The notes under the pieces were generated by a model. It was not told the origin of the DNA. It did no database searches and worked only from the letters and a program-made list of their open reading frames with translations. A stretch of 64,000 nt of DNA from Akkermansiaceae bacterium (lineage in GTDB: Bacteria > Verrucomicrobiota > Verrucomicrobiia > Verrucomicrobiales > Akkermansiaceae), in assembly GCA_044373465.1 (NCBI GenBank), contig JBILQE010000011.1, forward strand, positions 7,523-71,522, read 5' to 3'. Both the position numbers and the translations under genes were made by a program. Positions 8,654 to 27,105 of the stretch are shown in pieces; positions within the stretch are counted from its first letter, which is position 1; every line of letters begins with the position of its first letter.

Positions 8654-8785
8654 AGGCTAGGCGACAGAGGGTTGCCGGTTGGCGGCCAGGTGCAGCATGC
8701 CGACGAACTTCGCATAGATCCGTGGACCAAACAAGTCGAGAGCCATCGGCGTGACCGGTGGCAGTTGGTGGCCATTGCTCAATTC

Positions 8786-9889: not shown

Positions 9890-11249
9890 GCACCCTTAAC
9901 GCGTGAAGAATTCTCAGGGCGTCGTAGCGGAGAGCCAGAAGGTCGCGGGGAAGTTCCGCCAGCGATTGCCCCAGGATTCGGCAACTGGCCGGCAGGACGA
10001 ACACAGCCATGAGCACCTCCATGGCCAGAAGCCCCGCAAGCGCACCGGCGACGCCCCAGGAGCCGACCAGGGCGGCGCTGATGGCCACCCCGAGGAGCGC
10101 GCAGGCGACCCCGGCAACGGCATAACGCTCAGGCTGGTTGACCGCGCGAAAGGTGGCCGCCGCCGGCCACCACACCGCGTTGGCGGCGATCCCGGCGAGC
10201 AGCAACAGCCAGGAGTTGGCGGGTGGGTGGAGCATGTCGGCGGTCCACTTCGCATAGATCCATGGGCCAAACAAGCCGAGACCGACAATCCCGCCGGTGG
10301 CCAGCAGCGCGCTGAGTCCCAGCGCGAGCCGGAAGAGGCGCCGGGCACTGGCCATCGCGTGTTCAGCCACGGCGCGCTGGAGTTCGGGAAAGATCGTCGC
10401 TTGGACGGAATTGTACATTTGCGCGATGCTGTTGGCGACGGTCCGCAGGGTGGCGAGGATGGCGACAGCCTCCGCACCAAGGGCGATGCGGGTGACCAGC
10501 AGGGTGCCTTGCAGGTAGATCGAGCGGCGCACCGGCTCCATCAGGAACGCCAGACCCTTGCGGAAAAACAAGCGGACGTCGGCGCGCTCGATTGGCTGCC
10601 CCGCGGGGACCACCGCCGGCAGCAGCCGTCGGCCAGTCAGATAAAGCCCTGCGGCGGACACGCTGGAGATCGCAAGGTCAGCGGTGGCCAGCCAGAGCAT
10701 CCCCTTGCCGGTCATCAGCAAGCCGATGAAAGTCCCGATCTGCAGCAGCGCAAACCCCGCCTCCCACGCAATCGCCAGATGGGCTCTGCCAGCCGCGCGA
10801 AACCACCCGTCGTTGAGCTGGTTGTGGAAACTCACCAAACCCGAGGCGGCAAGCACCCCGACGACCGCCAGCGCAGTCGGTGTGTGGACGTCGGTTGCTG
10901 CCAGCGCGCCGGTCATCCAGAGCGCCGTGAGCAGCACCGCGCTGGCTGCCACACCGAGAACCATCACCAGCAACAACAACGCTTGCCCGGCCCGCATCGC
11001 GCGCGCCGCGCCCGCAAGGTCGCCGCCGAGGTAGCGCAGGACAAAGGTGTTGGCCGCCGCCGATCCGAGCCCGAGGTTGCAGAACGCCAAACTTGCGGGA
11101 ATGGCCGAAAGCGTCAGCCACTCGCCGTAGGCCGCCGCTCCCCAACTCATCAGGAAGAACGGCACAAGCACCAAATGCTGGACCGCCAGCACCCCCTTGT
11201 GGAAGAGCACGGCGCTGCCGTTGAGGACGAGGTTGCGTTTGGTCGACAT
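9861..11249 (-). CDS. wzx: Polysaccharide flippase, MOP/Wzx-like
   Basis: 462 aa with about 12-14 TM segments. N-terminus: MSTKRNLVLNGSAVLFHKGVLAVQHLVLVPFFLMSWGAAAYGEWLTLSAIP. The call rests on topology plus locus context. Confidence 0.65.
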   Translation of the reverse strand: MSTKRNLVLNGSAVLFHKGVLAVQHLVLVPFFLMSWGAAAYGEWLTLSAIPASLAFCNLGLGSAAANTFVLRYLGGDLAGAARAMRAGQALLLLVMVLGVAASAVLLTALWMTGALAATDVHTPTALAVVGVLAASGLVSFHNQLNDGWFRAAGRAHLAIAWEAGFALLQIGTFIGLLMTGKGMLWLATADLAISSVSAAGLYLTGRRLLPAVVPAGQPIERADVRLFFRKGLAFLMEPVRRSIYLQGTLLVTRIALGAEAVAILATLRTVANSIAQMYNSVQATIFPELQRAVAEHAMASARRLFRLALGLSALLATGGIVGLGLFGPWIYAKWTADMLHPPANSWLLLLAGIAANAVWWPAAATFRAVNQPERYAVAGVACALLGVAISAALVGSWGVAGALAGLLAMEVLMAVFVLPASCRILGQSLAELPRDLLALRYDALRILHALRVHAKPATDGH

Positions 11250-11257
11250 GACGCGCG

Positions 11258-12712
11258 CTAGCGACCTTCATAATGGGCCGGCGAGATCTCCTCGTTGCTG
11301 GCGTCCTCGGCCGTCGGCACCGCCGGTTTTTCCGCTGGGCGCTTCGAGCGGCGGCGCAAGGTGCGCCGGAGTTGGGCGAAGATTTCCTGGCGCAGCGCAA
11401 ACACGTCCGCTGGGAGGCGGGCAAGCGGCTGGCCGATGATCTTGCAGGTGGCCGGCAAGACGAAGGCTCCCATCAAGGTCTCCATGACGAGCAGTCCAAG
11501 CAACACCCCGTTGACTCCCATGGGTCCGACAAGGATCGCACTCAGCCCCACGCCGATGCAGGCGGTGAGAATCCCAACAACCCCCGAGGCTTCCGGACGA
11601 TTGACCGCCCGGAACGTGCATCCTGCTGCGCACCAGACGGTCGGAACAAACGCGCCGAGCAGCAGGAAGACCCACGCGTATTGGGGCGGATCAAGCTTTC
11701 CGGTCGTCCATGCATGGTACACATGCGGGCCGAACAAGCTAATCGCCGCACATCCGGCGAGCCCCACGAATATCGACAACCCGGTGCCAAACCGATAAAT
11801 CCGTCGCGCGTCTTCATCCCGCGAGGTGGCGATGGCGTGCTGCAGCTCAGGGAAAATCGTCGCGTTGATCCCCAGCGATGCTTGAGCGAGCGTATTGCCG
11901 ATCGTCCGGAGGGTCGCAATGAGGACCACCGCCTCGGGCCCGAGGGCGATCCGGGTCACAAAGATCATTCCTTGAGCGTGGATGGCTTGGCGCGCTGGAC
12001 TCATGAGGAACGCCAGCCCCTTTTTCAGGAATACGATCAATTCCGCCTTTTCGATTCGTGCGGCCGCTAGATCGATCTCAGGGAGCAATTTGCCGCCCCG
12101 GTGATGGAGCCATCCCACACCAACGATGGCTGAGGCCAGGTTCAAGGAGGCAATCCAGATCATTCCCCCACCTGCAAGCAGTGTCAGAACCGTCAGCCCC
12201 GTGGCGACCAGCGCCGCGACCGAGCCATAATGCGTCGACTCATGGTTGCGGCGCGCCGCGCGGAACCATGCCTCGTTGAGGGAACTGAAAAATCCCACTA
12301 CTGTCGCTAACGCCAGCAGACAGATCACCGCTACCGAGGTGGCCGGTGGTTGCGCGAACTCTGTGAGCAAGCCGCTTGCCGAGGCGATTCCCAACGCGAT
12401 CCCGCCAAGCAGCATGCCGACGCCCACAGCCACGAATACCAATAGCATGCCGCTGCGCATCGCACGCGCGGCACCAGCCAGATCGCCCTTGCCGTAGGCG
12501 AGGACGAACGCGTTGCCGGCGGCCGTTCCCAGGCCGAAGTTGCAAAACGAAATCGAGACCGGAATCGCCGAGAGGGTGATCCATTCACCATAGTGCTCAA
12601 GCCCCCACGAGTGGATGAAGAACGGCACGACGACGAGGTGCCGGGCGGCGATGACCGCCTTCTGAAGCACGGTGGCGGCGCCATTGAGAAGCAAGTGGCG
12701 TATGATTGACAT
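11258..12712 (-). CDS. wzx: Polysaccharide flippase, MOP/Wzx-like (tandem paralog)
   Basis: 484 aa. The N-terminus MSIIRHLLLNGAATVLQKAVIAARHLVVVPFFIHSWGLEHYGEWITLSAIP is colinear with the downstream gene. It also shares ...FLKKGLAFLMSPARQAIHAQGMIFVTRIALGPEAV... versus ...FFRKGLAFLMEPVRRSIYLQGTLLVTRIALGAEAV... Confidence 0.65.
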   Translation of the reverse strand: MSIIRHLLLNGAATVLQKAVIAARHLVVVPFFIHSWGLEHYGEWITLSAIPVSISFCNFGLGTAAGNAFVLAYGKGDLAGAARAMRSGMLLVFVAVGVGMLLGGIALGIASASGLLTEFAQPPATSVAVICLLALATVVGFFSSLNEAWFRAARRNHESTHYGSVAALVATGLTVLTLLAGGGMIWIASLNLASAIVGVGWLHHRGGKLLPEIDLAAARIEKAELIVFLKKGLAFLMSPARQAIHAQGMIFVTRIALGPEAVVLIATLRTIGNTLAQASLGINATIFPELQHAIATSRDEDARRIYRFGTGLSIFVGLAGCAAISLFGPHVYHAWTTGKLDPPQYAWVFLLLGAFVPTVWCAAGCTFRAVNRPEASGVVGILTACIGVGLSAILVGPMGVNGVLLGLLVMETLMGAFVLPATCKIIGQPLARLPADVFALRQEIFAQLRRTLRRRSKRPAEKPAVPTAEDASNEEISPAHYEGR

Positions 12713-12734: not shown

Positions 12735-13703
12735 TTAGCGGCGCACGCGCAAACGGCGTTTGGCGCGGCTGAGGAGGTCGCGCCCATGGTCAAGTGAGCG
12801 ACGCAGGAGGCGCGGCACGGTGGCGAGCGGCCCGTGGTTGAGGAAGTGCGGGATGACCTTGGTGTCGAAGAGCTCGAGCCAATTTTGGGCGAGCGCCTCG
12901 GCGGTGAACGCGCGCGCCTTGGCGGCGCCATTTTCCACAATCCGCGCGTAGACTTCCGGGTCGTCAAGCAGCGCGAGGGCCTCCTCGAACTCCGCGGTCG
13001 TCTGGACCCGCAGGTAGTCCTCGCCTGGCGTGCCGATCTTGGAAAATGCCGAGTCGTAGCCGCCGATGAGCGGGACGCGCGCGTGCCACGCGTTGATCAA
13101 CTTGCTCGGCGGCTTGTCCGGATAGGTCTGGTTGGAAAAGCTGCGGATCCCGACGACCGCGTCGACGTTGGCCATGTTGTGCCATTGCTCCTTGGCGATG
13201 TGGAGGAAGTCGACGGTGCGCCCGTGCAGCGGGAAGTGCGGGCGGTTGAGGAACCCGTCAAGGTTGCGCGCGCCCGGGCGACCGGCGTAGGCGATGCACG
13301 CGAGCCCACGGCGGCCGGGATCCCGCGGGATGATCCCCGGCACCGGCCAATAACAAACGTATCCCTGGGTGGCCGTGCGCACCGCCTCGGGGTTCTGCAG
13401 GATCTCGAAATCCACGTCGAACACCCGCGTGTAGTCCGCCCGCATCGACACCCGGTACTCGCCAATCCGCGCACCCAGCTCGTGCCACGCCGTGACGTGC
13501 GCAATGTTGATCGCCCCGGGTTGCGCCGCGGTCCCGATCGATATCCCGTCACGCCAACCGCGCAGCTGCAAATACGTCTGGACCGGCCAGTTCACCGGCC
13601 CGCCGAGCCAATACGGGAAGTCGACGCCGAGCCGCTTGGCGCACAACTCGGCCAGCTCGCCCGGCGTCAAGCGGTTGACGACAAAATGGATCTTCGGGTG
13701 CAT
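12735..13703 (-). CDS. Hypothetical protein; only the C-terminal half looks like a GT-B glycosyltransferase
   Basis: 322 aa. The C-terminal block ...KPPSKLINAWHARVPLIGGYDSAF...GEDYLRVQTTAEFEEALALLDDPEVYARIVENG... resembles the nucleotide-sugar-binding half of GT1/GT4 enzymes. The N-terminal half is unrecognised. Confidence 0.45.
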   Translation of the reverse strand: MHPKIHFVVNRLTPGELAELCAKRLGVDFPYWLGGPVNWPVQTYLQLRGWRDGISIGTAAQPGAINIAHVTAWHELGARIGEYRVSMRADYTRVFDVDFEILQNPEAVRTATQGYVCYWPVPGIIPRDPGRRGLACIAYAGRPGARNLDGFLNRPHFPLHGRTVDFLHIAKEQWHNMANVDAVVGIRSFSNQTYPDKPPSKLINAWHARVPLIGGYDSAFSKIGTPGEDYLRVQTTAEFEEALALLDDPEVYARIVENGAAKARAFTAEALAQNWLELFDTKVIPHFLNHGPLATVPRLLRRSLDHGRDLLSRAKRRLRVRR

Positions 13704-13724
13704 AGGATATTTTTTGGAAGCTCG

Positions 13725-14222
13725 TTAGGACCTACTCCCCAGATGCTTTTTAACCTTCGCAGGGACCCCAACGGCCAACACGCCCGCGGCGATATCATCG
13801 GCAACCAATGCAAGGGCACCAATAACCGACCCCTGCCCCACAGTGACTCCCGGGACCAAGATCGCCCCGCTGGCAATCCAGGCGCCATCCTCAATCGTGA
13901 CCGCTCCAGCTCGGTGGGCCCTTCGCTCGTCACTGGTATCCAGCTCGCCGGTGTGAATCTGCACACCCGCTGATAAATGCACGTCGGCGCCAATCCAGAT
14001 CTTGCCGCGTGCGTTTAGATGGAGCCCTTCGTTGAGCGTGCAGCCGTCCCCAAGTGTTAGGTTGCGCGGGTCGCCGATGATCGTGAAGCGGCCAAACGCG
14101 CGGACGTTCTTGCCGACATGCGCGCCAAGCGCGCGGAGCCGCAGGACCCGGAGCCGGTTGATCCAGCCGAAGACCTTGCGTTCGGAGAACCGGTAGCACT
14201 TGTGGAGGAATTCGGCGGCCAT
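13725..14222 (-). CDS. Hexapeptide-repeat (LbH) O-acetyltransferase, WcaF/Mac-like
   Basis: 165 aa. Left-handed beta-helix repeats are visible (IGDPRNLTLGDGCTLNEGLHLNARGKIWIGADVHLSAGVQIHTG...VTIEDGAWIASGAILVPGVTVGQGSVIGA). Confidence 0.8.
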   Translation of the reverse strand: MAAEFLHKCYRFSERKVFGWINRLRVLRLRALGAHVGKNVRAFGRFTIIGDPRNLTLGDGCTLNEGLHLNARGKIWIGADVHLSAGVQIHTGELDTSDERRAHRAGAVTIEDGAWIASGAILVPGVTVGQGSVIGALALVADDIAAGVLAVGVPAKVKKHLGSRS

Positions 14223-14265
14223 CGAAATTGTTAGCTGAGAGGGAAATTTTTTGCGTTGGCCTTTC

Positions 14266-14289
14266 CTAGCAGGCTAGCAGGCTAGCAGG
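14266..14289. promoter_or_regulatory. Perfect (CTAGCAGG) x3 tandem octamer upstream of the minus-strand operon
   Basis: Read directly, 44-67 nt upstream of the ATG at 14222. The same heptamer CTAGCAG occurs as an inverted pair at 30737-30756, upstream of ugd. Confidence 0.35.
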
Positions 14290-14302
14290 CGCGGCGGGGA
14301 AT

Positions 14303-14407
14303 TCCGCGGTGGCGGAATCGGCGGGATGGCGGATGTTGGGGGAATTTTTAACAATCCCCCCAAACATGATCAGGAATTACCGGCTAGGAAATTTGGCGTT
14401 GGCGACG
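14303..14407 (+). repeat. 105-bp direct repeat, copy 1 (duplicate of the 5' end of the kinase-like gene)
   Basis: Near-identical to 15939-16043, with a handful of mismatches by eye. It contains ATG at 14366 followed by MIRNYRLGNLALAT..., which then diverges and stops at 14438-14440. Confidence 0.9.
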
Positions 14408-14436
14408 GTCGCGATGGCGGTGCGGCTAGCTGATTG

Positions 14437-15363
14437 CTAGAAGCAATGGCGGAAATATTCGATGGTCCGCTTGAGGCCGTCCTCGAGGGGGATGGTTGGC
14501 TGCCAGCCGAGTTCCTGTTGGGCGAGGGAGATGTCCGGGCGGCGCTGCTTCGGGTCGTCGCCGGGGAGCGGGAGGAAGACGAGTTTGGACGTGCCGCCGA
14601 CCATCTTGATGACCATCTCGGCGAGCTCGAGCATGGAGAACTCGCCGGGGTTGCCGATGTTGACCGGGCCGGTGAGCGTCGGGTGGTTCATCAAGCGGAC
14701 GAAGCCCTCGATGAGATCGTCGACATAGCAGAACGAGCGGGTCTGGGTGCCATCGCCATAGATGGTCAGGTCTTTGCCCTGGAGAGCCTGAACGATGAAG
14801 TTTGAAACCACGCGGCCGTCATCGGGCAGCATCCGCGGCCCGTAGGTGTTGAAGATGCGCACGACGCGGACTTCGACGCCGTTTTGCCGGTGGTAGTCGA
14901 AACAGAGGGTCTCGGCGCAGCGCTTGCCTTCGTCGTAGCAGGCGCGGATGCCGATCGGGTTGACGCTGCCTTTGTAGCTCTCTGGCTGCGGGTGGATTTC
15001 CGGATCGCCGTAGACTTCCGAGGTCGATGCCTGGAACATCCGCGCGCCGACCCGCTTGGCCAGCCCGAGCGCGTGCATCGTCCCCAACACCGAGGTCTTG
15101 ATCGTCTTGATCGGGTTGTGCTGGTAGTGCGGCGGGGACGCCGGGCAGGCGAGGTTGTAGATCTGGTCGACCTCGAACTTGAATGGATCGCAGACGTCGT
15201 GGCGGACGAGCTCGAAACGCGGGTCGCCTAGCAGGTGGGCGACGTTTTGTTTTCGCCCGGTGAAGAAGTTGTCCAGGCAGATGATTTCGTGGCCGGCGCC
15301 AAGCAGGCGCTCGCAGAGGTGGGAGCCGAGGAAGCCGGCCCCGCCGGTGATGAGGATGCGCAT
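14437..15363 (-). CDS. UDP-glucuronate decarboxylase (UDP-xylose synthase)
   Basis: [21 protein letters not shown]..., [20 protein letters not shown] and YDEGKR (YxxxK) are colinear with UXS/ArnA-decarboxylase-type SDR enzymes. 308 aa. Confidence 0.9.
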
Positions 15364-15369
15364 AGGATT

Positions 15370-15397
15370 GGGAGTCGGGAGTCGGGAGTCGGGGGTC
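15370..15397. repeat. Heptanucleotide tandem repeat (GGGAGTC x3 + GGGGGTC) in the uxs 5' leader
   Basis: Read directly. It starts 7 nt upstream of the uxs ATG (15363) on the coding strand. Confidence 0.85.
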
Positions 15398-15518
15398 GGG
15401 GGGGCGAGTCGCCGGTGGCGGGTGCGGGTGCGGGTGCCGGGTACGACTTGTTGCCCCCGCAGCCGCGAGATCGTGGAGGCAAGGAGCCGCGACTTCAGGC
15501 GAGTGTGCGCTGACGAGA

Positions 15519-15534
15519 AGCGACTGAAGTCGCT
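15519..15534. promoter_or_regulatory. 7-2-7 inverted repeat AGCGACT-GA-AGTCGCT (copy 1)
   Basis: Read directly. An identical copy with conserved flanks (GAAGCGACTGAAGTCGCTAsTCCTTGG) lies at 15892-15907. Confidence 0.4.
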
Positions 15535-15555
15535 AGTCCTTGGGCATGGCGTCGG

Positions 15556-15762
15556 TCAGAGTTCGATCAGCGACGAGCTGCTCGAGGACATCACAGACGG
15601 CTTGCATGATTTTTTGATGCGTTCCAGGGCCCGGGTTTCCAGGATAAGTTTGCCGATGAGGGCAATTTTCTCCGCGGCCGGAAGCGTGCGCTGGCGCTCG
15701 CGCCAGCGCGGCATGCCACGGGCGGGTCGAATTTCAAGTGGTTGGGGCGCGCTGTGCTCCAT
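15556..15762 (-). CDS. Small hypothetical protein (68 aa)
   Basis: ORF only, with no recognisable family. It lies between the two AGCGACT-GA-AGTCGCT palindromes and ends with a Ser run. Coding status is uncertain. Confidence 0.25.
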   Translation of the reverse strand: MEHSAPQPLEIRPARGMPRWRERQRTLPAAEKIALIGKLILETRALERIKKSCKPSVMSSSSSSLIEL

Positions 15763-15891
15763 GAGAGAAAGCTGCCCGGCAAATGGGACATTTGCAAGGC
15801 GTGAAGATTTCCGGCGGCTGGCAGTCAGGCCGCGTCGCGGAGCAGTGGCCCGGCCGAGCTAGGGCTCGGCGTTCCGCGTCTGGGGAAGGGA

Positions 15892-15907
15892 AGCGACTGA
15901 AGTCGCT
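15892..15907. promoter_or_regulatory. 7-2-7 inverted repeat AGCGACT-GA-AGTCGCT (copy 2)
   Basis: Read directly, 95 nt upstream of the kinase-like ATG at 16002. Confidence 0.4.
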
Positions 15908-15938
15908 ACTCCTTGGCGGTGATTTCGGGGTAAGAAAC

Positions 15939-16043
15939 TCCGCGGTGGCGGAATCGGCGGGATGGGGAATGTTGGGGGAACTTTTAACAATCCCCCCAAA
16001 CATGATCAGGAATTACCGGCTAGGAAAGTTGGCGTTGGCGACG
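15939..16043 (+). repeat. 105-bp direct repeat, copy 2 (authentic 5' UTR plus first 14 codons of the kinase-like gene)
   Basis: See 14303-14407. Confidence 0.9.
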
Positions 16044-17177
16044 ACGGGTGGCGGCGAGTTGCGCGCGTTGATTGACGCGGAGCTTGAGTCGATCGCGGTG
16101 AGTGGCGATGGCGTGGCGGCGGCGGTGGAGTTCAATTTCCCGGGCGAGTCGCCGGTGGCGGGTGCGGGTGCCGGGTATTTCAAGCCGGTGCGGGTGTGGG
16201 AGGGCGGGTATGTCGCGAGCCAGGGCGACATCGTCTACAAGGTCGAGCCGGGAGGTGGCGCGGCCGGGGCCGGCGGCGGGCGGACGCGGGTGAGCTTGCG
16301 CGCGCGGAAGCCGCGCGAGTCGTTGAAGCGGCGGATGTTGCCGGTCTGGCTGCGGCGCGCGCACCACTGGAACTACTTCACGCCGCTCGACGAGCAGGCG
16401 AAGGGGTTCATGTACAACATCTTCGATTATCTGACCCAGATCGCCAACCTGGACGCGGGGCAGACGTATGTGCACGCGAGCTCGTTTCGCAAGGGCGACC
16501 GGGGAGTGGGGATCTTTGCCTGGGGGGGGATCGGCAAGACCACGGCGATGCTCAAGATGGTCATGCAGGGCGGCTGGCAGTTTCTCAGCGACGACCTCGG
16601 GTTGCTTGATGCGGATGGCACTCTTTGGCGCTCGCCGAAGCGGATGCAGATCTACGCCTACAATTTGGTCGGCCAGCCGAAATTGCGCGCCGCGTTGATG
16701 CGCGACCGGAGCCTGCTTGACCGGTCGGCGTGGGAGTGGCGCCGGCTGCGTTACGGGACCCACCAGGTCCGGCGGCGGGTGTCGGCTGAGGAGTTGTTTG
16801 GGGTTGACGGGGTGGCGAAGTGCGCACCGTTGACCGACGCGTTGTTTGCCGAGCGGGTCGATGCCGAGACCTTCAGCTGCGTGGCGATGGCGCCGAAGCA
16901 GTTCAGCGAGCGCTGCGCGGCGATCGTGATGAGCGAGATCGAGCCGTATTCGGAGATCCTCACCGCGATCCAGGCCGCCGGGTTCTCCGAGCTGCTCCCG
17001 AGCTACCATGACCTGTTGACCCGCAGCCGCGAGATGCTTGCCAGCACCCTCGCGCGCCAGAACATCCAGCCGCTCCTCTGGCGGATCCCGAAACACGCCA
17101 GCCCGGAGGCGATCCACGACGACCTCGTGCGGATCCTCGCAAGCAGGAAGCCGGCGCGGCCGTCACCCGTGAATTGA
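16002..17177 (+). CDS. HPr-kinase-C-terminal-domain-like P-loop kinase (function unknown)
   Basis: ORF 15783..17177 trimmed to the ATG at 16002 (MIRNYRLGKL...). The core ...YVHASSFRKGDRGVGIFAWGGIGKTTAMLKMVMQGGWQFLSDDLGLLDADG... matches the HprK-like pattern hASxx...G.GxGKo(T/S)...G..hhSDD. It is the only plus-strand gene inside the minus-strand arm. Confidence 0.6.
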   Translation: MIRNYRLGKLALATTGGGELRALIDAELESIAVSGDGVAAAVEFNFPGESPVAGAGAGYFKPVRVWEGGYVASQGDIVYKVEPGGGAAGAGGGRTRVSLRARKPRESLKRRMLPVWLRRAHHWNYFTPLDEQAKGFMYNIFDYLTQIANLDAGQTYVHASSFRKGDRGVGIFAWGGIGKTTAMLKMVMQGGWQFLSDDLGLLDADGTLWRSPKRMQIYAYNLVGQPKLRAALMRDRSLLDRSAWEWRRLRYGTHQVRRRVSAEELFGVDGVAKCAPLTDALFAERVDAETFSCVAMAPKQFSERCAAIVMSEIEPYSEILTAIQAAGFSELLPSYHDLLTRSREMLASTLARQNIQPLLWRIPKHASPEAIHDDLVRILASRKPARPSPVN

Positions 17178-17219
17178 ATGGGGATGATCGGACGGATCCG
17201 ACCGATCGGTCCGATCATC

Positions 17220-17927
17220 TCATGTACCAGTCGCATTCTCCCACGGGAAATCGGCACCGGCAGGTGCCGGAAACCCGAGGAAATCCGCCAGGGCGGCGTA
17301 GGCGCCCGGCGCGGCAACATTGAGGACCAGCAGCTTTCCGGGCCTGCCGCGGAACTGGTCGATGACCGCCTGGTTGTGGCGGAGGTAGTTTTGTTGGTAG
17401 AGGTCCGGATCGTAGAGGTCAGCCTGGCCGGTGACGCCGTAGACGAGCGTTTGCCCGTCCCAGCTCCAGCCGGGATAGCAATAGGTGTCGCCCTTGAGGT
17501 CCTCGACGGTCGGGAGCCGGCCTTTGTTGATCCGCTTGGTGGCGAAGCGGGTCACCGAGGCGAACCACTGCGCCGGACTGTCGCGCACCGTGAGGATGAA
17601 TTTTGCCCGCGGAAACGCCGCGTCGAGAACCGCGTGGGTCCCCGGCAGGCTGAACGGGACATCCTGGAAGGCATCGTAGAACCGGCAGAACCAGAGCAGG
17701 CGCCGGAAATCCCGCGCATCCCACTGGCGCAGCATTCGTTCCGCCGGCCATTGCGGCGCCACTTGGTACCCGAACCCGGCAAGCGCCTTGGCCAGCGATG
17801 TCGTCCCGGTCTTGTTGCGCCCGACACAGAACACCGGCTCCGCGGCACCCAGCGACGCGCGCCCGCGCACCACCGCCCCGGCCAAATGCCGCGCCAGACG
17901 CAGCCAGCTGATGCTCTGGTCACTCAC
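17220..17927 (-). CDS. Sulfotransferase family protein (P-loop, Sulfotransfer_4-like)
   Basis: FCVGRNKTGTTSLAKAL is a 5'-PSB-like loop, and ILTVRDSPAQWFAS is an RDP..W..S-type 3'-PB-like block. The ORF extends to 18119, but that part reads through a repeat element. The in-frame GTG at 17927 (VSDQSISW...) is taken as the start, so the start is uncertain. Confidence 0.6.
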   Translation of the reverse strand: MSDQSISWLRLARHLAGAVVRGRASLGAAEPVFCVGRNKTGTTSLAKALAGFGYQVAPQWPAERMLRQWDARDFRRLLWFCRFYDAFQDVPFSLPGTHAVLDAAFPRAKFILTVRDSPAQWFASVTRFATKRINKGRLPTVEDLKGDTYCYPGWSWDGQTLVYGVTGQADLYDPDLYQQNYLRHNQAVIDQFRGRPGKLLVLNVAAPGAYAALADFLGFPAPAGADFPWENATGT

Positions 17928-17936
17928 GCTTTTTGT

Positions 17937-18035
17937 GGAGCGAACTTTTTGTGTAGCGAACTTTGTGAAAAGTTCGGCGGGGTCAAGCGTCTCCCGCCAG
18001 AACGCCCGAACGCGCAAGCGACCTCCCGCCTCCTC
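17937..18035 (+). repeat. REP-A element copy a (GTAGCGAAC family), forward
   Basis: gagcgaactttttgtGTAGCGAACTTTGTGAAAAGTTCGGCGGGGtcaagcgtctCCCGCCAGAACGCCCGaacgcg... shares its 5' two-thirds with copies d-g. The 3' part is divergent. Confidence 0.85.
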
Positions 18036-18149
18036 CAGTGTTGGACTTGCCGAGGGCGCAACCCGTTGGGGTAGATGATTTTTTTGGGGGGCCATTCCCA
18101 GGGTAGGCGGGTACGCCAACCCTGGGCTTCGGGGCGAAACCGCGCTGCG

Positions 18150-18258
18150 GTATCAAGGTGTCGAACATCCAACGTCGAAACGTCGGGAAGTCCTCCGCGG
18201 GTTCGGGCGTTCTGGTGGCAGGTGGTTACCCCGCCGAACTTTTCACAAAGTTCGCTAC
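18150..18258 (-). repeat. REP-A element copy b, reverse orientation
   Basis: The reverse complement begins GTAGCGAACTTTGTGAAAAGTTCGGCGGGGTAACCACCTGCCACCAGAACGCCCG. It is in 111-bp tandem with copy c. Confidence 0.9.
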
Positions 18259-18260
18259 CC

Positions 18261-18369
18261 GTATCAAGGTGTCGAACATCCAACGTCGAAACGTCGGGAA
18301 GTCCTCCGCGCGGCCGGGCGTTCTGGCGGCAGGTGCTTACCCCGCCGAACTTTTCACAAAGTTCGCTAC
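18261..18369 (-). repeat. REP-A element copy c, reverse orientation
   Basis: Near-identical to copy b. It ends 5 nt from the stop of the GT2 gene (18374). Confidence 0.9.
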
Positions 18370-18373
18370 CCAA

Positions 18374-19411
18374 TCACGCGCGGCGGTGGCTGAGCAGAGC
18401 GAGGAGCAGGCTGCGCGGCGGGATGAGGAGGATGACGGCCTGGTAGCGGAGCATCTCGAGCAGCCGGGCGGGACTGCGCCACGGATGCCGGAACGTCCCG
18501 GTGAGTGCCCGGAGGAATTCCCGGAGGTATTTTTTGCTCTGGGGAAAGTCGCCTACGCTCAGCGAGCTCGATAGCGCCCGCCAGGATGCGAAGGCGAGCC
18601 CGAGGCTGGCTTCCAGGACGGCGTCCGGGTGGATACTGTGCATGATCGCGCGGGTCGTCTTGACGAGTTCAGCGCGCCGGCCGTCGGCCGAGCGGGCGGA
18701 CCAAACGCCGCCGGGATGCTGGCGGTAGGCGCCCATGGACCCGCCGACCTGGTGCATTTCCCCGTGGCGCGACATCATCGCAAACAGAAACAAGTCGCCG
18801 GTGACCAGCGGTTCGGGCGGCAGGGGAATTGGCAGGTTGCGAAACACAATCGAGAGCGTCGGGATGAACGCCCGGCGGATCTGCGGGAAGCACTTCAGCT
18901 CGCGGGCCTGGTTGATCCGCCCGTAGGCGAGCATCTGCGATGGCGCCAACACCACCTTGTTCGCGTCAACACCGGCCACATCATGGAATGTCAGCGCCAC
19001 CTCGGGGTGCTTGCGCAGGTAGCCGACCTGCAACTCAAGCTTGCCCGGGTCTGTCCAGTAGTCGTCACCCTCGCAGGCGGCAAGGAACTCGCCGCGGGCC
19101 ATGGCGCGCAGTTGGGGGGCAATGCGGATCCCCTGGGAATACTGGTTGGTCTCCTGCAGGACGGCCCGAATGACGTCCGGATGTCTCGCTTGATACTCGC
19201 GGATGATCTCGGCGGTTGCGTCGGTCGACGCGTCGTCATGGATGATAATCTCAACGGGAAAGCTCGTCTCCTGCATCAGGAACCCTTCGATGGCGTCCCG
19301 AATGAACCCTGCGTGGTTGTACGTCGCGCAGCAGATGCTCAGCGTCGGCACCGTGCCCGCCGGCCAAGCCTGCGCGCGCACGGGCAGCGGATCGGGGGCG
19401 GCGCTCATCAT
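18374..19411 (-). CDS. Glycosyltransferase family 2
   Basis: LSICCATYNHAGFIRDAIEGFLMQETSFPVEIIIHDDASTD is a classic GT2 N-terminal Rossmann block with the DxD region. 345 aa; 4-nt overlap with the downstream GNAT gene. Confidence 0.85.
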   Translation of the reverse strand: MMSAAPDPLPVRAQAWPAGTVPTLSICCATYNHAGFIRDAIEGFLMQETSFPVEIIIHDDASTDATAEIIREYQARHPDVIRAVLQETNQYSQGIRIAPQLRAMARGEFLAACEGDDYWTDPGKLELQVGYLRKHPEVALTFHDVAGVDANKVVLAPSQMLAYGRINQARELKCFPQIRRAFIPTLSIVFRNLPIPLPPEPLVTGDLFLFAMMSRHGEMHQVGGSMGAYRQHPGGVWSARSADGRRAELVKTTRAIMHSIHPDAVLEASLGLAFASWRALSSSLSVGDFPQSKKYLREFLRALTGTFRHPWRSPARLLEMLRYQAVILLIPPRSLLLALLSHRRA

Positions 19412-19998
19412 TCTTCCGGGTCGACAACCTTCAGATAGGGCTCAAAGGCGCCGCGCTGGGCGTCAAACTCGCAGCGCAGCACGCTCATGACGATCACGTC
19501 GTGGAACTTCCCATGCGCAAAAATCTCACTGCGCAACACCCCGTCGCGGGTTGCGCCGAGCCGCTTCGCAATCCTCAGCGGCAGGGGGTTGTCTTTCCGG
19601 ATCTTGGTGTAAATCTTGTTGAGGTTCAGCGCTTGGTGGAGGTGGTCAAGCGCCACGACAACGGCTTCAAAACCGTGGCTAAGTCCCGCGGGCTCACCTA
19701 TGCCGATGTAAACTTCCGCCTTGGCGTTGGGCACATCAATATCGCGGAAGCCAACGTAGCCGACTGGCTGGCAATTTTCTTGAGTGTGGATGATCAGATC
19801 CAGCCGGGTCGGGTCATTGGCGAGCTTTTCGGTCCACAGACGGGTGGATTCCTCGGAGATCGCTGCGGGCAGGTTGAGCTTCCGCCCGATCTCCTCGGAG
19901 TTCATCCAGCGGGTGCGGATGGCGACAAACTCCTCGGCCATCGGGACCAGGAAAATGTGCCTTCCCTCGATGAAATTCGTTCCTGGACTGAGCATCAT
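19408..19998 (-). CDS. GNAT family N-acetyltransferase (RimJ/RimL-like)
   Basis: 196 aa. ...VGYVGFRDID..AEVYIGIGEPAGLSHGFEAVVVALDHLHQALNLNKIYTKIRKDNPLPLRIAKRLG... is a GNAT fold pattern. Confidence 0.75.
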   Translation of the reverse strand: MMLSPGTNFIEGRHIFLVPMAEEFVAIRTRWMNSEEIGRKLNLPAAISEESTRLWTEKLANDPTRLDLIIHTQENCQPVGYVGFRDIDVPNAKAEVYIGIGEPAGLSHGFEAVVVALDHLHQALNLNKIYTKIRKDNPLPLRIAKRLGATRDGVLRSEIFAHGKFHDVIVMSVLRCEFDAQRGAFEPYLKVVDPEE

Positions 19999-19999
19999 T

Positions 20000-21205
20000 T
20001 CAATCGGCTTCCGTCGCCGGCACTCGCTCGACTGACTGCGGGCGACTCAAGCAAAGATCGGCAAAGTGGGCAATCCTCTCGCAGACACGGACAACATCCT
20101 CGGTGCTCACCGCGGTGCCGGTTGGCAGCACCAGCACTTGCTGGCAGAGCTTGTCAGTCGCCGGCAGCGTGGGAGCCGTCGCCTGGCGTGAGACATACGG
20201 TTCCATCCGGTGGCAGCCGGGGAAGAAATACCGGCGGACAAAGATATCCTCCGCATGCAGCGCCGCCATCAGCTCGTCGCGGTTGAAGCCCGCTTCCGCG
20301 GCGTCAATCTCGAGGATCACGTACTGCTGGTTGCTCTCGCCAATCCCCTCGTAGGCATAAACTCTCACGCCGGCCAAGGCGCCCAGCCGGCTCTGGTAGT
20401 GGCTGAAATTCCGCCGGTTGGCTGCCGTGATGGCATCCAAGCCGGCAAAGCACGCCAGCCCCATGGCGGCGTGGATCTCGGACATTTTCGCGTTGGTCCC
20501 AAGGTCCTCGACGCAGTCAAACCCGCTGAAGCCAAAGTTGATCATCAGCCGGATCCGCGCCGCGAGCGCATCGTCGTTGGTCGCGATCGCCCCGCCTTCC
20601 GCGGTGTTGAAAAACTTCGTCGCGTGAAAACTGAACACCTCGCAGCGGCCAAAATTGCCGATCATCTTCCCCCCGTGGCGACAGCCAAACGCATGCGCCG
20701 CATCAAAATACAGCTCCAACCCGTGGCGCTGCGCAATTTCCTCGAGCCGCTCCGGATGGCACCCGCGGCCCCACGTGTGGACCCCGAGAATCGCGCTCGT
20801 CCGTGGCCCGATCAGGCGCTCGACCGCCTCCGGATCCAGTAGATGAGTCACCGGATCAATCTCGCAAAATACCGGCTCCACACCCTGCCAGCGCACCGAG
20901 TGCGCCGTGGCCACAAACGTGAAGGCCGGCATGATCACCTCCCCGGTTAGCTCCAGCGCCTGGCATACCACCTGCAATCCCAGCGTCGCATTGGCCACCG
21001 GAATGCAGTGGCGCACCCCGAGGTACCCGCACAGTTCCGCCTCGAGTTGTTGGACCAACGGCCCGTTGTTGGTTAGCCAGCGCCGCGCAAACATCCCGTC
21101 AACCAGCGCATCAAACACCGCACGCTCACCCAGGTTCGGCCGCCCAACAAATAGCGGGCTTCCGCGCTCAGGCACTGGCGCAACTGGCTTGATCACTTGA
21201 CTCAT
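20000..21205 (-). CDS. DegT/DnrJ/EryC1/StrS-family PLP-dependent sugar aminotransferase
   Basis: FSFHATKFFNTAEGGAI is the PLP-lysine block, with family-typical blocks throughout. The ORF extends to a GTG at 21265 (GTGA overlap with the upstream stop). I prefer the ATG at 21205 because 21228-21252 is a copy of a short hairpin repeat that is otherwise intergenic. Confidence 0.85.
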   Translation of the reverse strand: MSQVIKPVAPVPERGSPLFVGRPNLGERAVFDALVDGMFARRWLTNNGPLVQQLEAELCGYLGVRHCIPVANATLGLQVVCQALELTGEVIMPAFTFVATAHSVRWQGVEPVFCEIDPVTHLLDPEAVERLIGPRTSAILGVHTWGRGCHPERLEEIAQRHGLELYFDAAHAFGCRHGGKMIGNFGRCEVFSFHATKFFNTAEGGAIATNDDALAARIRLMINFGFSGFDCVEDLGTNAKMSEIHAAMGLACFAGLDAITAANRRNFSHYQSRLGALAGVRVYAYEGIGESNQQYVILEIDAAEAGFNRDELMAALHAEDIFVRRYFFPGCHRMEPYVSRQATAPTLPATDKLCQQVLVLPTGTAVSTEDVVRVCERIAHFADLCLSRPQSVERVPATEAD

Positions 21206-21261
21206 TGGACGCGTTCGATCTTGGGCTGGCCGAGCTGGGGCTCGGCGTTCCGTTCCGTCTG

Positions 21262-22221
21262 TCACCCCAGCCGGAGGACGATGTCTTTGTAGCCGCTAAC
21301 TCCGATGGCCGGCTGCAGCCACTCTGGGGCGACGGGTTCTCCGCGCGCCCAGGCGACGAGTGCGGCGGGCACGTTGGCGCCGGCCAGATGTTGGAATGGA
21401 TAGTCGCCGGTGAAGCGCGGGTTGATATCGAGAACGTAACAAACGTCGTTGGACACGATCATATCGATCCCCCAGATGCCCGCATGGTTGGTTAGCCCGG
21501 CGAGCTTGGCGGCAAGCGCGGCGAACTGCTGCGGGTCGACGGTGGTGGCGCGGTCCGACTCGCCGGCGCGCATTGAATCAACCCTGCAGGCAAAGGTCGC
21601 CCTTGGAACCCCGGCGAGATCGTTGACCAGGTTGAGCCGGAATTCGGTACCGACGACAAATTCCTGGAAAATCCGCGGCGCCTCGGCCGCTCGATCTGCC
21701 GCCCCCCAGCACTCAAGCTCCTGCCTGCTCCGGCAGACCCGCAGCCCACCTGAGCCAAACCCGCTGCGCTCCTTGATGACGATTGGCAAGCGGATCTCCC
21801 CGGAGTCAAGCGCGGCTAGCGTCTCGCTCAGCGATGGACTCGTCCACGGGCTGCTTATCCCGTGGCTGCGCAAAAATTGCTGGCACTCTAACTTGTCGAG
21901 GCAGCGTTGCGCCCAGCGCGCGTCCGGCAGGGTGCTCGCGGCGCGGGCAAACCCGCCGCCGAACTGCGCGAGCACCGTGGTGTCCAGGTCATGGAGCGAG
22001 CAGAGCAGGCCGATCTCATGGGTCGCGCAGATCTGCGCGATGCTTTCCGCGTATCCCGCGCTCGCCACCGGCGCGACCACCAAGGCCACGTCGGCCACCT
22101 GCATTCCGGCCGCCTGCGCATGGCTGTTAGTGACCACCACCTGGCCGGTCCCGCCGAGCGCCTGGCGAAAGTAGTCAACCAGATAGGCGCGGCGTCCGAC
22201 GCATGTTAGCAACACGTTCAT
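21262..22221 (-). CDS. ATP-grasp domain enzyme (carboxylate-amine ligase type)
   Basis: 319 aa. MNVLLTCVGRRAYLVDYF... is a pre-ATP-grasp region, then ...LPIVIKERSGFGSGGLRV...FQEFVVGTEF...WGIDMIVSNDVCYVLDINPRFTG, an ATP-grasp pattern. Confidence 0.75.
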   Translation of the reverse strand: MNVLLTCVGRRAYLVDYFRQALGGTGQVVVTNSHAQAAGMQVADVALVVAPVASAGYAESIAQICATHEIGLLCSLHDLDTTVLAQFGGGFARAASTLPDARWAQRCLDKLECQQFLRSHGISSPWTSPSLSETLAALDSGEIRLPIVIKERSGFGSGGLRVCRSRQELECWGAADRAAEAPRIFQEFVVGTEFRLNLVNDLAGVPRATFACRVDSMRAGESDRATTVDPQQFAALAAKLAGLTNHAGIWGIDMIVSNDVCYVLDINPRFTGDYPFQHLAGANVPAALVAWARGEPVAPEWLQPAIGVSGYKDIVLRLG

Positions 22222-22241
22222 TCGCGGTCGGAGGAAGAAGG

Positions 22242-22382
22242 ATTGACCGCGGAGAAGCGGAGGCAGCGGAGAGACGCGGAGGACAGCCGGAATAAGGAAT
22301 CAGCGCATCAGGCACTGGTGCTCATTTTGAAGCTAATCTTAAGATTCTTCTCCGCGTCCCTCCGCTTCTCCGTTTCTCCGTG
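22242..22382. repeat. REP-B element copy A (CGGAGAAGCGGAGG hairpin family)
   Basis: Arms 22248-22285 (cggagaagcggaggcagcggagagacgcggagga) and 22347-22380 (cttctccgcgtccctccgcttctccg...) are mutually complementary. 22242-22286 is the exact reverse complement of 23330-23374. Confidence 0.85.
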
Positions 22383-22402
22383 GTAAGTACCATCATCGCC
22401 CA

Positions 22403-23125
22403 TTAGACCGGCGACTCCCTCGGAAGTTCCAGTTGGCCGGCGAGCACGTGGGACCGCGCTTCGGCCCGGGACGCGCGCATGATGAGGTCGAGGATCGAGA
22501 GGCTGGGGATGAACTCGGCGCTGGCCTGCGGATAGGGACGCAGGACGGGATCGACAAACCTCAATGTTAGTCCGTTCTGCGCAAATTCCGCATGCCTATA
22601 CAGGTGGCGCCCGCCGCCGGAGTTGACATAGGTGGTTGCCCGTTCCTGGCGGCAGATATCAAACAACCGGGCGGTCCCGCGGAGGTGGGCGTTGGCGTAG
22701 CCGGTCGAGGTTTCCACAATCTCGACCGGGAGCCGGAGCCAGCGGCAGATTTCGCGGATGCTCCGCGCGTTGATCGCCGAGATCGGCGCGTCCGGGTCGC
22801 TGAGCCACTCGCCCAACATCGGGAAGATCTCCGCGAAGTTGCGCGCATCGTGGTACCCGTGGGTCACTGTCTTGAGAAACCTCCGCCGCCACGCCCGGAA
22901 CCCGTCCGCCGGGCGAAACTCGTGGATCCTCGCGGTGTGCGGGTGGCGTCGCAGCGGAATCGAAAACTCGTGGCGCTCCCCGCCCATCAGGACCGTGTTG
23001 CTCGCGATCCACCCGCCTTTGATGAACTGCACATCGTCGGCCAAGACCATCTTGTCCACCGCCGCGAGCAACTGGAAATACCCCAGATACGGGAGGAAAT
23101 ACGGCTGCATGATCCCGAGGCGCAT
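22403..23125 (-). CDS. WbqC-like family protein
   Basis: ORF 22403..23215 trimmed to the ATG at 23125. MRLGIMQPYFLPYLGYFQLLAAVDKMVLADDVQFIKGGWI.N... is the characteristic WbqC-family N-terminus as I recall it. Confidence 0.75.
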   Translation of the reverse strand: MRLGIMQPYFLPYLGYFQLLAAVDKMVLADDVQFIKGGWIASNTVLMGGERHEFSIPLRRHPHTARIHEFRPADGFRAWRRRFLKTVTHGYHDARNFAEIFPMLGEWLSDPDAPISAINARSIREICRWLRLPVEIVETSTGYANAHLRGTARLFDICRQERATTYVNSGGGRHLYRHAEFAQNGLTLRFVDPVLRPYPQASAEFIPSLSILDLIMRASRAEARSHVLAGQLELPRESPV

Positions 23126-23129
23126 TGCC

Positions 23130-23482
23130 GAGGAGGGAGTCGAAGGTCGGGGGGCGGCCGGTAGGGCGATGCGTCTCCGCAGCGCCCGCGCATGAAGCCG
23201 CCGATGCTTATGCAATGAACGGACGGCAGACTTCCCATGGGCATCCCATCCTCACCCCATGCGCCGGGCGTCGGGACCCACCGAGAAGCGGAGAAAAATC
23301 CAGGTTTCGCTTTAGAATGAGAACAAGCGCTGTCCTCCGCGTCTCTCCGCTGCCTCCGCTTCTCCGCGGTCAATCCGTCAGGTCGAAGGGATCATTGAGG
23401 AGGCTTCGCGCGCGAGCAATGGCGGTTCATTCGTGGGCGCTGCGGAGACGCATCGCCCTACCGGGCCTTCGACTCCTCCCTC
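23130..23482. mobile_element. 353-bp inverted-repeat-bounded, MITE-like intergenic element (no ORF)
   Basis: The left arm 23130-23187 (gaggagggagtcgaaggtcggggggcggccggtagggcgatgcgtctccgcagcgccc) is the imperfect reverse complement of the right arm 23435-23482. The interior contains REP-B copy B (about 23281-23374). It fills the whole wbqC/LbH intergenic gap. Confidence 0.45.
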
Positions 23483-24152
23483 ACTCGCCAATCTCGCGAA
23501 TGACCTTGCACGGGTTGCCGAAGGCGAGCACCCCCGGGGGAATGTCGCGGGTCACGACGCTGCCGCCGCCGATGATGCTGTTGGCGCCGATTTTGATGTT
23601 GTCGAAAACCACCGCGCCGATGCCGAGTTGGACCGCCTCGCCGAGGTCGCACTGGCCGGCGACATGGGCGCCCGGGTTGACCGAGACGAAGCGTCCGAGG
23701 CGCGTGTGGTGGCCGATGGTGCACCCGCGGTTAAGGGTGACGCCGAAGCCGATCTCGGCAAACGCCGAGACGACCACCCCGGGTTCGAAATAACTTCCGC
23801 GTCCGACCCGCGCACTCGAGGCAATGAACGAGTGCGGCGACACCAGCGTCCCAAAGTCATCCTCGCCCAACGGCTGCGCCGCCGCAAAAAGCTCCAGCAC
23901 CGTCCGCTTCCCGCCCGGCTTCGCCAGCGCAAACCCAAGCCGGTCGCCCCCGCGGGCAAACGTCCAGTCCGCCAGCGCGACCCGCTCGTACCTAACTGCC
24001 GGATGGGCGAACGCCACCTCGTCGCGCGCCGGGATGTTCTCGATGATCCTAACAGGCCCGGCGGCTTTGTTGGCCGCGAGGGTCTCAAAGATCAGAGCCA
24101 GAATGTTCCCGCTGAACCCCAGGAACACGTTCGGTGTTGTAGTATCCTCCAT
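23481..24152 (-). CDS. NeuD/PglD-type hexapeptide (LbH) sugar N-acyltransferase
   Basis: The N-terminal Rossmann-like ...NVFLGFSGNILALIFETL is followed by LbH repeats ...IGHHTRLGRFVSVNPGAHVAGQCDLGEAVQLGIGAVVFDNIKIGANSIIGGGSVVTRDIPPGVLAFGNPCKVI. ATG at 24150-24152 (a TTG at 24158 is also possible). Confidence 0.8.
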   Translation of the reverse strand: MEDTTTPNVFLGFSGNILALIFETLAANKAAGPVRIIENIPARDEVAFAHPAVRYERVALADWTFARGGDRLGFALAKPGGKRTVLELFAAAQPLGEDDFGTLVSPHSFIASSARVGRGSYFEPGVVVSAFAEIGFGVTLNRGCTIGHHTRLGRFVSVNPGAHVAGQCDLGEAVQLGIGAVVFDNIKIGANSIIGGGSVVTRDIPPGVLAFGNPCKVIREIGE

Positions 24153-24954: not shown

Positions 24955-25025
24955 GGGGAAAAGTGAGCAGTGAGCAGACCGGTCTGATGAAGCAGTGGGA
25001 AGTGGGTAGATCCGATCAATCAAAA

Positions 25026-25889: not shown

Positions 25890-25892
25890 GGG

Positions 25893-26027
25893 CGTAGCGA
25901 ACTTCTTGCGTAGCGAACTTTGTGAAAAGTTCGGCGGGGAGAACTGCCTGCCGCCAGAACGCCCGAACGCGCTAAGGACTTCCAACCTTCCCCCGCCGCA
26001 GCTACAAAACGCGACGAACCTCGCTAC
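25893..26027 (+). repeat. REP-A element copy d
   Basis: cGTAGCGAACTTcttgcGTAGCGAACTTTGTGAAAAGTTCGGCGGGGagaactgCCTGCCGCCAGAACGCCCGaacgcgctaaGGACTTCC...gaacctCGCTACg. It fills the rfbB-rfbA gap and overlaps the rfbB stop codon. Confidence 0.9.
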
Positions 26028-27067: not shown

Positions 27068-27072
27068 GGAGG

Positions 27073-27105
27073 AGTCGAAGGTCGGAAAGTCGAAGGTCGA
27101 AAGTC
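27073..27105. repeat. Tandem repeat (AGTCGAAGGTCGRA, 14-bp period built from two heptamers) in the rfbB 5' leader
   Basis: Read directly: agtcgaaggtcgga aagtcgaaggtcga aagtc, beginning 6 nt upstream of the rfbB ATG (27067). A related ggagtcgaaggtttcgg...gggtcgggtc lies at 27213-27243. Confidence 0.8.

Follow-up and report, generated by a model that had tools for sequence, protein, structure and literature searches.

The DNA considered here is a 64,000-nucleotide stretch (the window) from an Akkermansiaceae bacterium of the Verrucomicrobiota, positions 7,523 to 71,522 of contig JBILQE010000011.1 in assembly GCA_044373465.1, and our subject is a kinase-like gene inside its surface-glycan locus, together with the protein family to which that gene belongs. 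The gene and the segment that carries its putative catalytic residues lie as follows.

16002..17177, plus strand: kinase-like gene of predicted HprK/PEPCK fold, encoding a soluble P-loop protein of 391 amino acids (open reading frame, gene calls, alignment, NCBIfam, AF2, Foldseek)
16473..16598, plus strand: predicted catalytic core with H158-A-S-S, the Walker A motif A173-W-G-G-I-G-K-T180, and S196-D-D198 (translation and alignment)

The open reading frame (ORF) is intact over 391 codons, gene callers run on four independent metagenome contigs gave an identical start and 391-amino-acid (aa) product, and prediction found no transmembrane segment in the protein. A preliminary description of this DNA, made from its letters and ORF translations, had quoted a core sequence that corresponds to 16473-16598 and translates as HASSFRKGDRGVGIFAWGGIGKTTAMLKMVMQGGWQFLSDDL. 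It had also singled out the gene as the only plus-strand gene of a minus-strand arm, and gene calls over 1-30.7 kb agree, as this is the sole credible plus-strand gene there and, from 198 to 30712, all further credible genes lie on the minus strand. The closest relative of the gene, 72% identical, is found at a locus termed L009 in a metagenome-assembled genome (MAG) of Akkermansiaceae from Lake Mendota, and the ratio of nonsynonymous to synonymous substitution rates (dN/dS) between the two orthologues is 0.24, from which we conclude that the gene is maintained. An alignment to 47 family members shows that the window protein keeps all 34 family-invariant residues. The possibility of a decaying pseudogene was rejected on the grounds of the intact ORF, the retention of every invariant residue and the dN/dS of 0.24. 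Rfam gave no match on 14200-18450, and the PADLOC defence models gave none for the kinase-like protein, three of its relatives or the neighbouring sulfotransferase.

A Pfam scan of the window protein returned no match, even at E<=10, and phmmer searches of PDB sequences with the protein and with the family profile returned chance matches only. NCBIfam produced a weak match to HprK-related kinase A (E=3e-6) and also one to kinase B, with scores of 26.4 and 18 bits against a curated cut-off of 200; the match comprises residues 146-208 and just positions 88-150 of a 280-position profile. Among 48 aligned family members, HprK_rel_A matched every one, HprK_rel_B 36 and ScmC 20, while TIGR00679, the profile of true HPr(Ser) kinase, weakly matched 18 (best E=2.7e-5). 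Relatives reached 17-19 bits with Hpr_kinase_C (PF07475; cut-off 33.3), and the precomputed PF27840 'ScmC' label is carried by about half of them and not by the window protein. One relative (P0031, 41% identical to the window protein) matched the HPr kinase/phosphorylase (HprK/P) of S. xylosus, 1ko7, at E=0.005; the alignment brings His, P-loop and Asp-Asp pair of the two proteins into register (LHGV…GDSGIGKSE…VADD on the 1ko7 side). Invariant in the 48-member alignment are H158-A-S, G176-x-G-K-T180, S196-D-D198, R210, P212, Q216, Y220, N221, R257-R-R259, R285 and E312.

Phosphoenolpyruvate carboxykinase (PEPCK) and HprK/P are built on one common P-loop fold. An AlphaFold2 (AF2) model of the window protein, with the family alignment as input, reached a pLDDT of 94.2 and a pTM of 0.92, and all 29 Foldseek matches of this model at E<=1e-3 were ATP- or GTP-dependent PEPCK or HprK/P. 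The HprK/P structures 2qmh, 1jb1, 1kkm and 3tqf matched with E-values of 4e-4 to 3e-3 and a target-normalised TM-score of about 0.5. The best alignments were to ATP-dependent PEPCK (E of about 3e-5, approximately 300 columns) and took in the N-terminal part as well as the P-loop part, this structural match being partial (TM-score of about 0.43, 15% identity). PEPCK profiles of Pfam and NCBIfam gave no match on the window protein and a single weak one among the 48 family members. A shikimate- or gluconate-type kinase, the placement that the preliminary description had named as speaking against its own, was rejected, because neither profile nor structure search gave such a match.

These data lead us to predict an HprK/PEPCK-type P-loop fold for the window protein, and the HprK-like core proposed earlier is thus upheld by NCBIfam, the P0031-1ko7 alignment, the AF2 model and Foldseek alike. 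By every curated threshold, the protein is outside HprK/P, the HprK-related kinases A and B, and ScmC. It resembles HprK/P (PF07475, TIGR00679; 1ko7, 1jb1, 2qmh) in the predicted P-loop fold of the C-terminal domain and in the spacing of a conserved His, a Walker A Lys 21 residues on and an Asp-Asp pair about 18 residues later. It differs from HprK/P in that approximately 50-110 residues are alignable by sequence, below the family cut-offs, in having another N-terminal domain and a C-terminal extension of about 170 residues, and in being encoded among glycan genes instead of genes of the sugar phosphotransferase system (PTS). In the AF2 model the N-terminal 125 residues form a beta-rich domain unlike that of HprK/P, and no Hpr_kinase_N Pfam match was obtained there. 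HprK-related kinase A/B and ScmC (TIGR04352, TIGR04355, TIGR04249; PF27840) provide the best profile matches of the family, but the window protein matches only their 60-residue core; we take these families to be uncharacterised and tied to PqqD-type peptide systems. Compared with ATP-dependent PEPCK the window protein is much smaller (391 versus about 530 aa).

The clearest information on the role of the protein comes from its relatives. In a set of 5.8 billion proteins we found 142 homologues, two of them close (72% and 65% identity in the search; 66-74% for P0002 and P0003 in the family alignment) and the remainder a full-length family of about 40% identity, the window protein being 36-44% identical to these other members over about 96% of its length. 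A metagenome scan for near relatives returned only proteins of 33-41% identity. An exhaustive profile search over clusters at 50% identity gave 331 at E<=1e-30 and 1087 at E<=1e-10; in the best 150 clusters nearly all full-length members measure 330-440 aa, with no hint of an extra domain. We fetched 80 genome loci, scored them with hidden Markov models (HMMs) built from annotated neighbours, and used the 36 distinct full-length loci of the kinase family as the synteny sample. In 24 of these a gene for a Wzx flippase is directly adjacent on the same strand, 18 times upstream and six times downstream of the kinase-like gene, and several of the 12 loci that lack an adjacent Wzx end at contig edges. 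Represented among the Wzx-adjacent loci are Bacteroidota, Gemmatimonadota, Myxococcota, Alphaproteobacteria and Planctomycetota. Where Wzx is upstream, 15 of the 18 loci have its stop codon at -4 to +125 nucleotides (nt) relative to the kinase codon that aligns first; these distances were recomputed from the starts of tblastn matches, as greedy ORF calls over-extend some high-GC kinase ORFs upstream.

Annotated neighbourhoods give the same picture. A Polysacc_synt (Wzx) gene is adjacent or one gene off in eight of nine relatives, and at the Longimicrobiales locus L005 no Polysacc_synt gene was annotated beside the kinase homologue; one or two genes of glycosyltransferase family 4 (GT4) usually follow the kinase-like gene in these nine. 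The adjacent Wzx proteins form a single orthologue group with a median identity of 47% to each other, and so do the adjacent GT4 proteins, which score 449-634 bits with the GT4 HMM. Clustering of all neighbours showed that Wzx and GT4 alone recur, with no gene family of the PqqD/RiPP recognition element (RRE) type, of nucleotidyltransferases or of sugar precursors, and in 10 annotated neighbourhoods there were no Pfam families for precursor peptides, RRE/PqqD or the processing enzymes of peptides that are made by ribosomes and altered after translation (RiPPs). In Gemmatimonadaceae a Wzx-kinase-GT4-GT4 module is flanked by unrelated genes. At L091 (7535-10107), in a Chitinophagaceae MAG, a Wzx-kinase pair with a 4-nt overlap stands alone amid genes for an esterase, a TonB receptor and a GH16 enzyme, with no glycosyltransferase within 9 kb. 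Distant relatives (about 26% identity) in Arthrobacter and Chloroflexia are located between GT2 genes and a Polysacc_synt gene. The window protein thus belongs to a distinct family whose hallmark is a directly adjacent Wzx gene, and the usual setting of the kinase-like gene is one operon with a Wzx-type flippase, whose gene touches or overlaps it, and an orthologous GT4. Homologues accordingly do co-occur with glycan genes, as the preliminary description required, whereas its statement that such a kinase is no standard component of Wzx/Wzy loci has to be revised in view of the 24 adjacent pairs. A literature search found no relevant paper on this kinase family or on its association with Wzx or another flippase.

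The window copy departs from this arrangement. The module-type Wzx HMM matched nothing in the 64-kb window, and the best GT4 of the window reached only 71 bits with the module-type GT4 HMM. The locus has a divergent Wzx of its own at 11258-12712, recognised through a 54%-identical relative with PF01943, and relative to it the kinase-like gene is inverted, 3.3 kb away and on the other strand. At L009 the kinase-like gene is likewise alone, next to a convergent RfbB-like dehydratase gene and a divergent gene that, judged by eye from its translation, is AT3-type acyltransferase-like; the module-type Wzx and GT4 are lacking and there is no sulfotransferase. The window gene is therefore a displaced, inverted copy at a cassette boundary, deprived of the Wzx and GT4 genes that usually accompany it. 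Since the window and L009 copies keep all invariant residues at a dN/dS of 0.24 in the absence of these partners, the comparison argues for a kinase-like protein that works by itself, as a stand-alone enzyme, and disfavours an obligate-subunit role.

The boundary itself is marked by the following features.

15936..16054, plus strand: junction repeat copy A, comprising 66 nt 5' of the kinase start and the first 17 codons (repeat search)
14300..14420, plus strand: junction repeat copy B, a leftover of the 5' end of the kinase-like gene that stops after about 14 codons (repeat search)
14437..15363, minus strand: UXS-like NAD-dependent epimerase/dehydratase gene (Pfam Epimerase E=2e-52, GDP_Man_Dehyd E=3e-51)
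15556..15714, minus strand: small ORF of 52 aa ending …VMSSSSSSLIEL, divergent from the kinase-like gene (gene calls)

The duplication of the kinase 5' end that had been noticed at 14303-14407 is real and longer than stated, with 121 nt at 92.6% identity between copies A and B and, in addition, a second piece of 33 nt (15402-15434, matching 16142-16174). Copy B is located between the UXS-like and hexapeptide-transferase genes, and the UXS-like gene is bracketed by the two repeated pieces of the kinase-like gene. Two sister loci, L092 and L093, were located via the divergent Wzx of the window; their backbone matches window 1-12712 with a nucleotide identity of 65-82%, and neither the kinase-like gene nor the sulfotransferase is present in them. 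L092 nevertheless retains the kinase upstream region and the first 30 or so codons, 92.9% identical to the window, so that the window and this gene-less sister locus each preserve a remnant of the kinase 5' end. These repeats and the L092 remnant confirm the rearrangement junction that the preliminary description had suspected here. A 265-nt segment (window 15554-15818), 97.7% identical in L092, adjoins the kinase remnant and holds the 52-aa ORF, whereas the window block 16093-27576, with the kinase body, the sulfotransferase, GT2, GNAT, DegT, ATP-grasp, WbqC and dTDP-sugar genes, has no counterpart in L092. The kinase-like gene and the sulfotransferase are thus in the variable part of a mosaic locus.

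Several smaller observations concern the same region. The segment of about 540 nt shared by window 15554-16092 and L092 7820-8276, which comprises the 52-aa ORF, the intergenic region and the kinase 5' end, is 93-98% identical, the flanking genes just 67-86%. It has the look of a recombination hot spot or cassette boundary, or else of a conserved leader region. A hairpin-bearing short repeat (…AGCGACTGAAGTCGCT…) is found at 15480-15543 and 15885-15916, in three copies upstream of the kinase-like gene, direct and inverted, and the 8-mer CTAGCAGG is present in three tandem copies at about 14266-14290, directly ahead of the kinase 5' remnant. In L093 (642-2143) the genes for a hexapeptide acetyltransferase and a 322-aa glycosyltransferase-like protein are in swapped order compared with window 12735-14222. 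The product of the 52-aa ORF is MPRWRERQRTLPAAEKIALIGKLILETRALERIKKSCKPSVMSSSSSSLIEL, with a hexa-serine run at its end; it is 100% identical at the amino acid level in L092, where all three substitutions are synonymous. It had no Pfam match and no tblastn match in plasmids, and the ORF was not found in the other kinase-family loci, L009 included.

On its other side, the kinase-like gene converges with a sulfotransferase gene.

17220..17927, minus strand: sulfotransferase gene, 235 aa, GTG start at 17927 (Pfam Sulfotransfer_4, PF17784)
17181..17221, no strand: stem-loop of 13 + 4 base pairs that fills the convergent gap (folding energy)
17949..18373, no strand: REP-like repeat block upstream of the sulfotransferase (repeat search)

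The preliminary description had recognised a sulfotransferase-like neighbour from its motifs GRNKTGTTS and RDSPAQWFAS, which are indeed visible in the sequence and of the type that binds 3'-phosphoadenosine 5'-phosphosulfate (PAPS). The profile check that it had suggested came out positive for this gene (PF17784, E=3e-23, 83.2 bits, gathering score 22.8) and negative for Hpr_kinase_C (PF07475) in the window kinase-like protein. Gene calling also offered a start at 18017, which would make the protein 265 aa long; the GTG start at 17927 is favoured because the homologues, at least 1618 in number, are mostly 205-250 aa long, and they align to the C-terminal 80% or so of the 265-aa form. Apart from one near-identical cluster at 97%, they are at most 59% identical. 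The enzyme is, as judged from its sequence, an ordinary Sulfotransfer_4 member without unusual features and probably an independent PAPS-dependent tailoring enzyme. The stop codons of the two convergent genes are separated by 42 nt (17178-17219), and the hairpin in this gap (-29.5 kcal/mol, z=-4.3, none of 200 shuffles as stable) resembles a bidirectional terminator, but it has no T-run. Within the fetched flanks, the sulfotransferase HMM found no such gene near a kinase homologue in any of the 36 other family loci; as the iterated HMM matched antisense ORFs in the window's own copies, only this zero count elsewhere was used. The neighbourhood of kinase-like gene and sulfotransferase looks like an accident of cassette shuffling rather than a partnership. 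The REP-like block consists of a 111-nt unit in two tandem copies (18150-18371) and an inverted partial copy (17949-18028). A palindromic REP-like 28-mer, GCGAACTTTGTGAAAAGTTCGGCGGGGT, occurs seven times in the window against an expectation of zero; three copies are within the 111-nt tandem and inverted block, between the sulfotransferase and GT2 genes, and others are at 25913, 40346, 41283 and 48875.

What, then, might the kinase-like protein do? We tentatively favour, with less than even confidence, a cytoplasmic ATP-using phosphotransferase that would add phosphate to a lipid-linked glycan before its export; here we infer both the activity and the glycan substrate. The HprK/PEPCK-fold enzyme would then serve polysaccharide or glycolipid assembly, rather than the PTS or a peptide natural product, by transferring phosphate from ATP, or from pyrophosphate (PPi), onto a hydroxyl group in the lipid-linked sugar unit at the cytoplasmic face, and the flippase would export the phosphorylated unit after this step. 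HprK/P is able to use PPi as phosphate donor. Phosphorylation is placed before flipping because the usual operon combines the kinase with a Wzx-type flippase and a GT4, and in the Wzx/Wzc-type glycan locus of the window the enzyme may have an optional tailoring function, since L092 and L093 have the backbone without the kinase-like gene. A precedent for GT4 and kinase neighbours is found in lipopolysaccharide core synthesis, where WaaG (GT4) is encoded beside the sugar kinase WaaP. The analogy would be a functional one, namely a cytoplasmic kinase whose gene neighbours a GT4 gene and whose substrate is a lipid-linked glycan still awaiting export, whereas WaaP has a eukaryotic-protein-kinase-like fold and we found no homology between it and the window protein. 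Three points weigh against a glycan-directed role. No member of the kinase family is characterised, the literature search having found no paper on it; the lone Wzx-kinase pair of L091 is no less compatible with a flippase-directed role than with a glycan-directed one; and the characterised HprK homologues all phosphorylate Ser of a protein or peptide, none of them a sugar (PMC8498205, PMC13381572).

The last point would be met by a Ser kinase/phosphorylase acting on a protein of the machinery, be it Wzx, the partner GT4 or another locus protein, and thereby regulating export or polymer synthesis, an option also raised in the preliminary description. The tight tie to one Wzx orthologue group and the isolated L091 pair would suit such a protein partner, for which the regulation of HPr by HprK/P could serve as a model. 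We regard this as unlikely, considering that the window and L009 copies are under purifying selection without a module-type Wzx or GT4, that the locus already encodes a Wzc-type tyrosine autokinase (35493-37691), the regulatory kinase customary in such pathways, and that the sister loci manage without the kinase-like gene. It is rather improbable that the protein, as a nucleotide-binding accessory of a Wzx-type multidrug/oligosaccharidyl-lipid/polysaccharide (MOP) transporter, gates or powers the flipping step and phosphorylates no separate substrate. The overlap of Wzx and kinase genes in many phyla and the two-gene unit of L091 speak for it, but the invariant HprK-type catalytic His and Asp-Asp point to phosphotransfer chemistry, the gene persists without a cognate Wzx in the clade of the window, and we know of no MOP flippase that requires an ATPase. 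With PEPCKs of the ATP-dependent type as top structural matches over about 300 columns, including the N-terminal part, one could also think of a small-molecule enzyme that produces or consumes a phosphorylated precursor for some unusual substituent of a sugar; with a TM-score of only about 0.43, no PEPCK profile match for the window protein and no precursor-pathway gene recurring near family members, such a role appears very unlikely.

Two further explanations draw on the immediate surroundings of the window gene, and synteny largely contradicts both. Kinase and sulfotransferase might be a dedicated pair installing phosphate and sulfate, as the preliminary description had proposed, considering that they are convergent neighbours with a common terminator-like hairpin and could both decorate the same polymer here. 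We give this little credence, as the sulfotransferase is missing from the 36 other family loci and belongs to a very large free-standing family, the 72%-identical orthologue at L009 adjoins an RfbB-like gene instead, and the sister loci have neither gene. It seems similarly far-fetched that the protein is a RiPP-type peptide Ser kinase with the divergent, hexa-serine-tailed 52-aa ORF as its substrate. HprK-like kinases do phosphorylate Ser of lasso and LPP precursors, and the ORF ends in a Ser run and differs between two loci by synonymous substitutions only. It is, however, absent from all other family loci, including L009, and remains intact in L092 despite the loss of the kinase there, and no RRE, protease or lasso cyclase is nearby. 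The RiPP HprK-like Ser kinases, such as the paeninodin-type lasso peptide kinases and LppK, are tailoring enzymes that place phosphate on a hydroxyl group of an intermediate in biosynthesis (PMC8498205, PMC13381572). The window protein shares their superfamily; in contrast to these kinases, its family has no recurrent precursor peptide, RRE/PqqD, nucleotidyltransferase, protease or cyclase in its neighbourhoods.

Returning to the proposed phosphotransferase, the significance of our observations lies mainly in the family-wide coupling of Wzx and kinase, more than in the kinase-sulfotransferase pair of the window. Wzx flippases are not known to need a partner that binds nucleotides, and to our knowledge polysaccharide synthesis has not been connected with any HprK-type enzyme. 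It is possible, if doubtful, that the family represents the first HprK/PEPCK-fold enzyme of glycan assembly, a kinase or nucleotide-dependent partner of a Wzx-type MOP flippase that would either phosphorylate the lipid-linked unit which this flippase recognises or act on the flippase; the overlapping gene pair is conserved across at least five phyla. The conserved Wzx-kinase(-GT4) module offers a testable handle on the phosphorylation of some lipid-linked glycans, and equally on a possible cytoplasmic control of flipping. Cultured carriers of the family include Sphingopyxis panaciterrulae DSM 27163 and Aurantiacibacter hainanensis H149, and Arthrobacter for the distant form. For the window, the kinase-like gene and the sulfotransferase would be two independent, optional tailoring genes of a mosaic surface-glycan locus.

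The remainder of this locus has some features of its own. A WecA-like initiating transferase gene is found at 31161-33221 on the plus strand, and its 686-aa product is an unusual two-part initiating enzyme, with a WecA-like (PF00953) N-terminal half fused to a C-terminal part similar to the N-terminal/CoA-binding region of polyprenyl glycosylphosphotransferases. At 7163-12712 the minus strand encodes four polytopic membrane proteins in a row, each with 6-11 hydrophobic segments; none has a Pfam match and at most one weak NCBIfam match was obtained (WZX_like, E=4e-4). No Wzy was identified in the locus, where three polytopic membrane proteins besides the divergent Wzx are without a significant match, and the Wzy polymerase is presumably among them. 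On the same strand, at 19408-25143, a run of GNAT, DegT aminotransferase, ATP-grasp (PylC-like), WbqC, LbH acyltransferase and BKACE genes suggests an amino sugar bearing an unusual acyl or aminoacyl substituent. In the sister locus L092, positions 1751-5476 hold a phosphonate-type cassette, with a phosphoenolpyruvate mutase-cytidylyltransferase fusion, a thiamine pyrophosphate-dependent decarboxylase and an iron-containing alcohol dehydrogenase; the window has none, and the cassette suggests phosphonate decoration of a related glycan.

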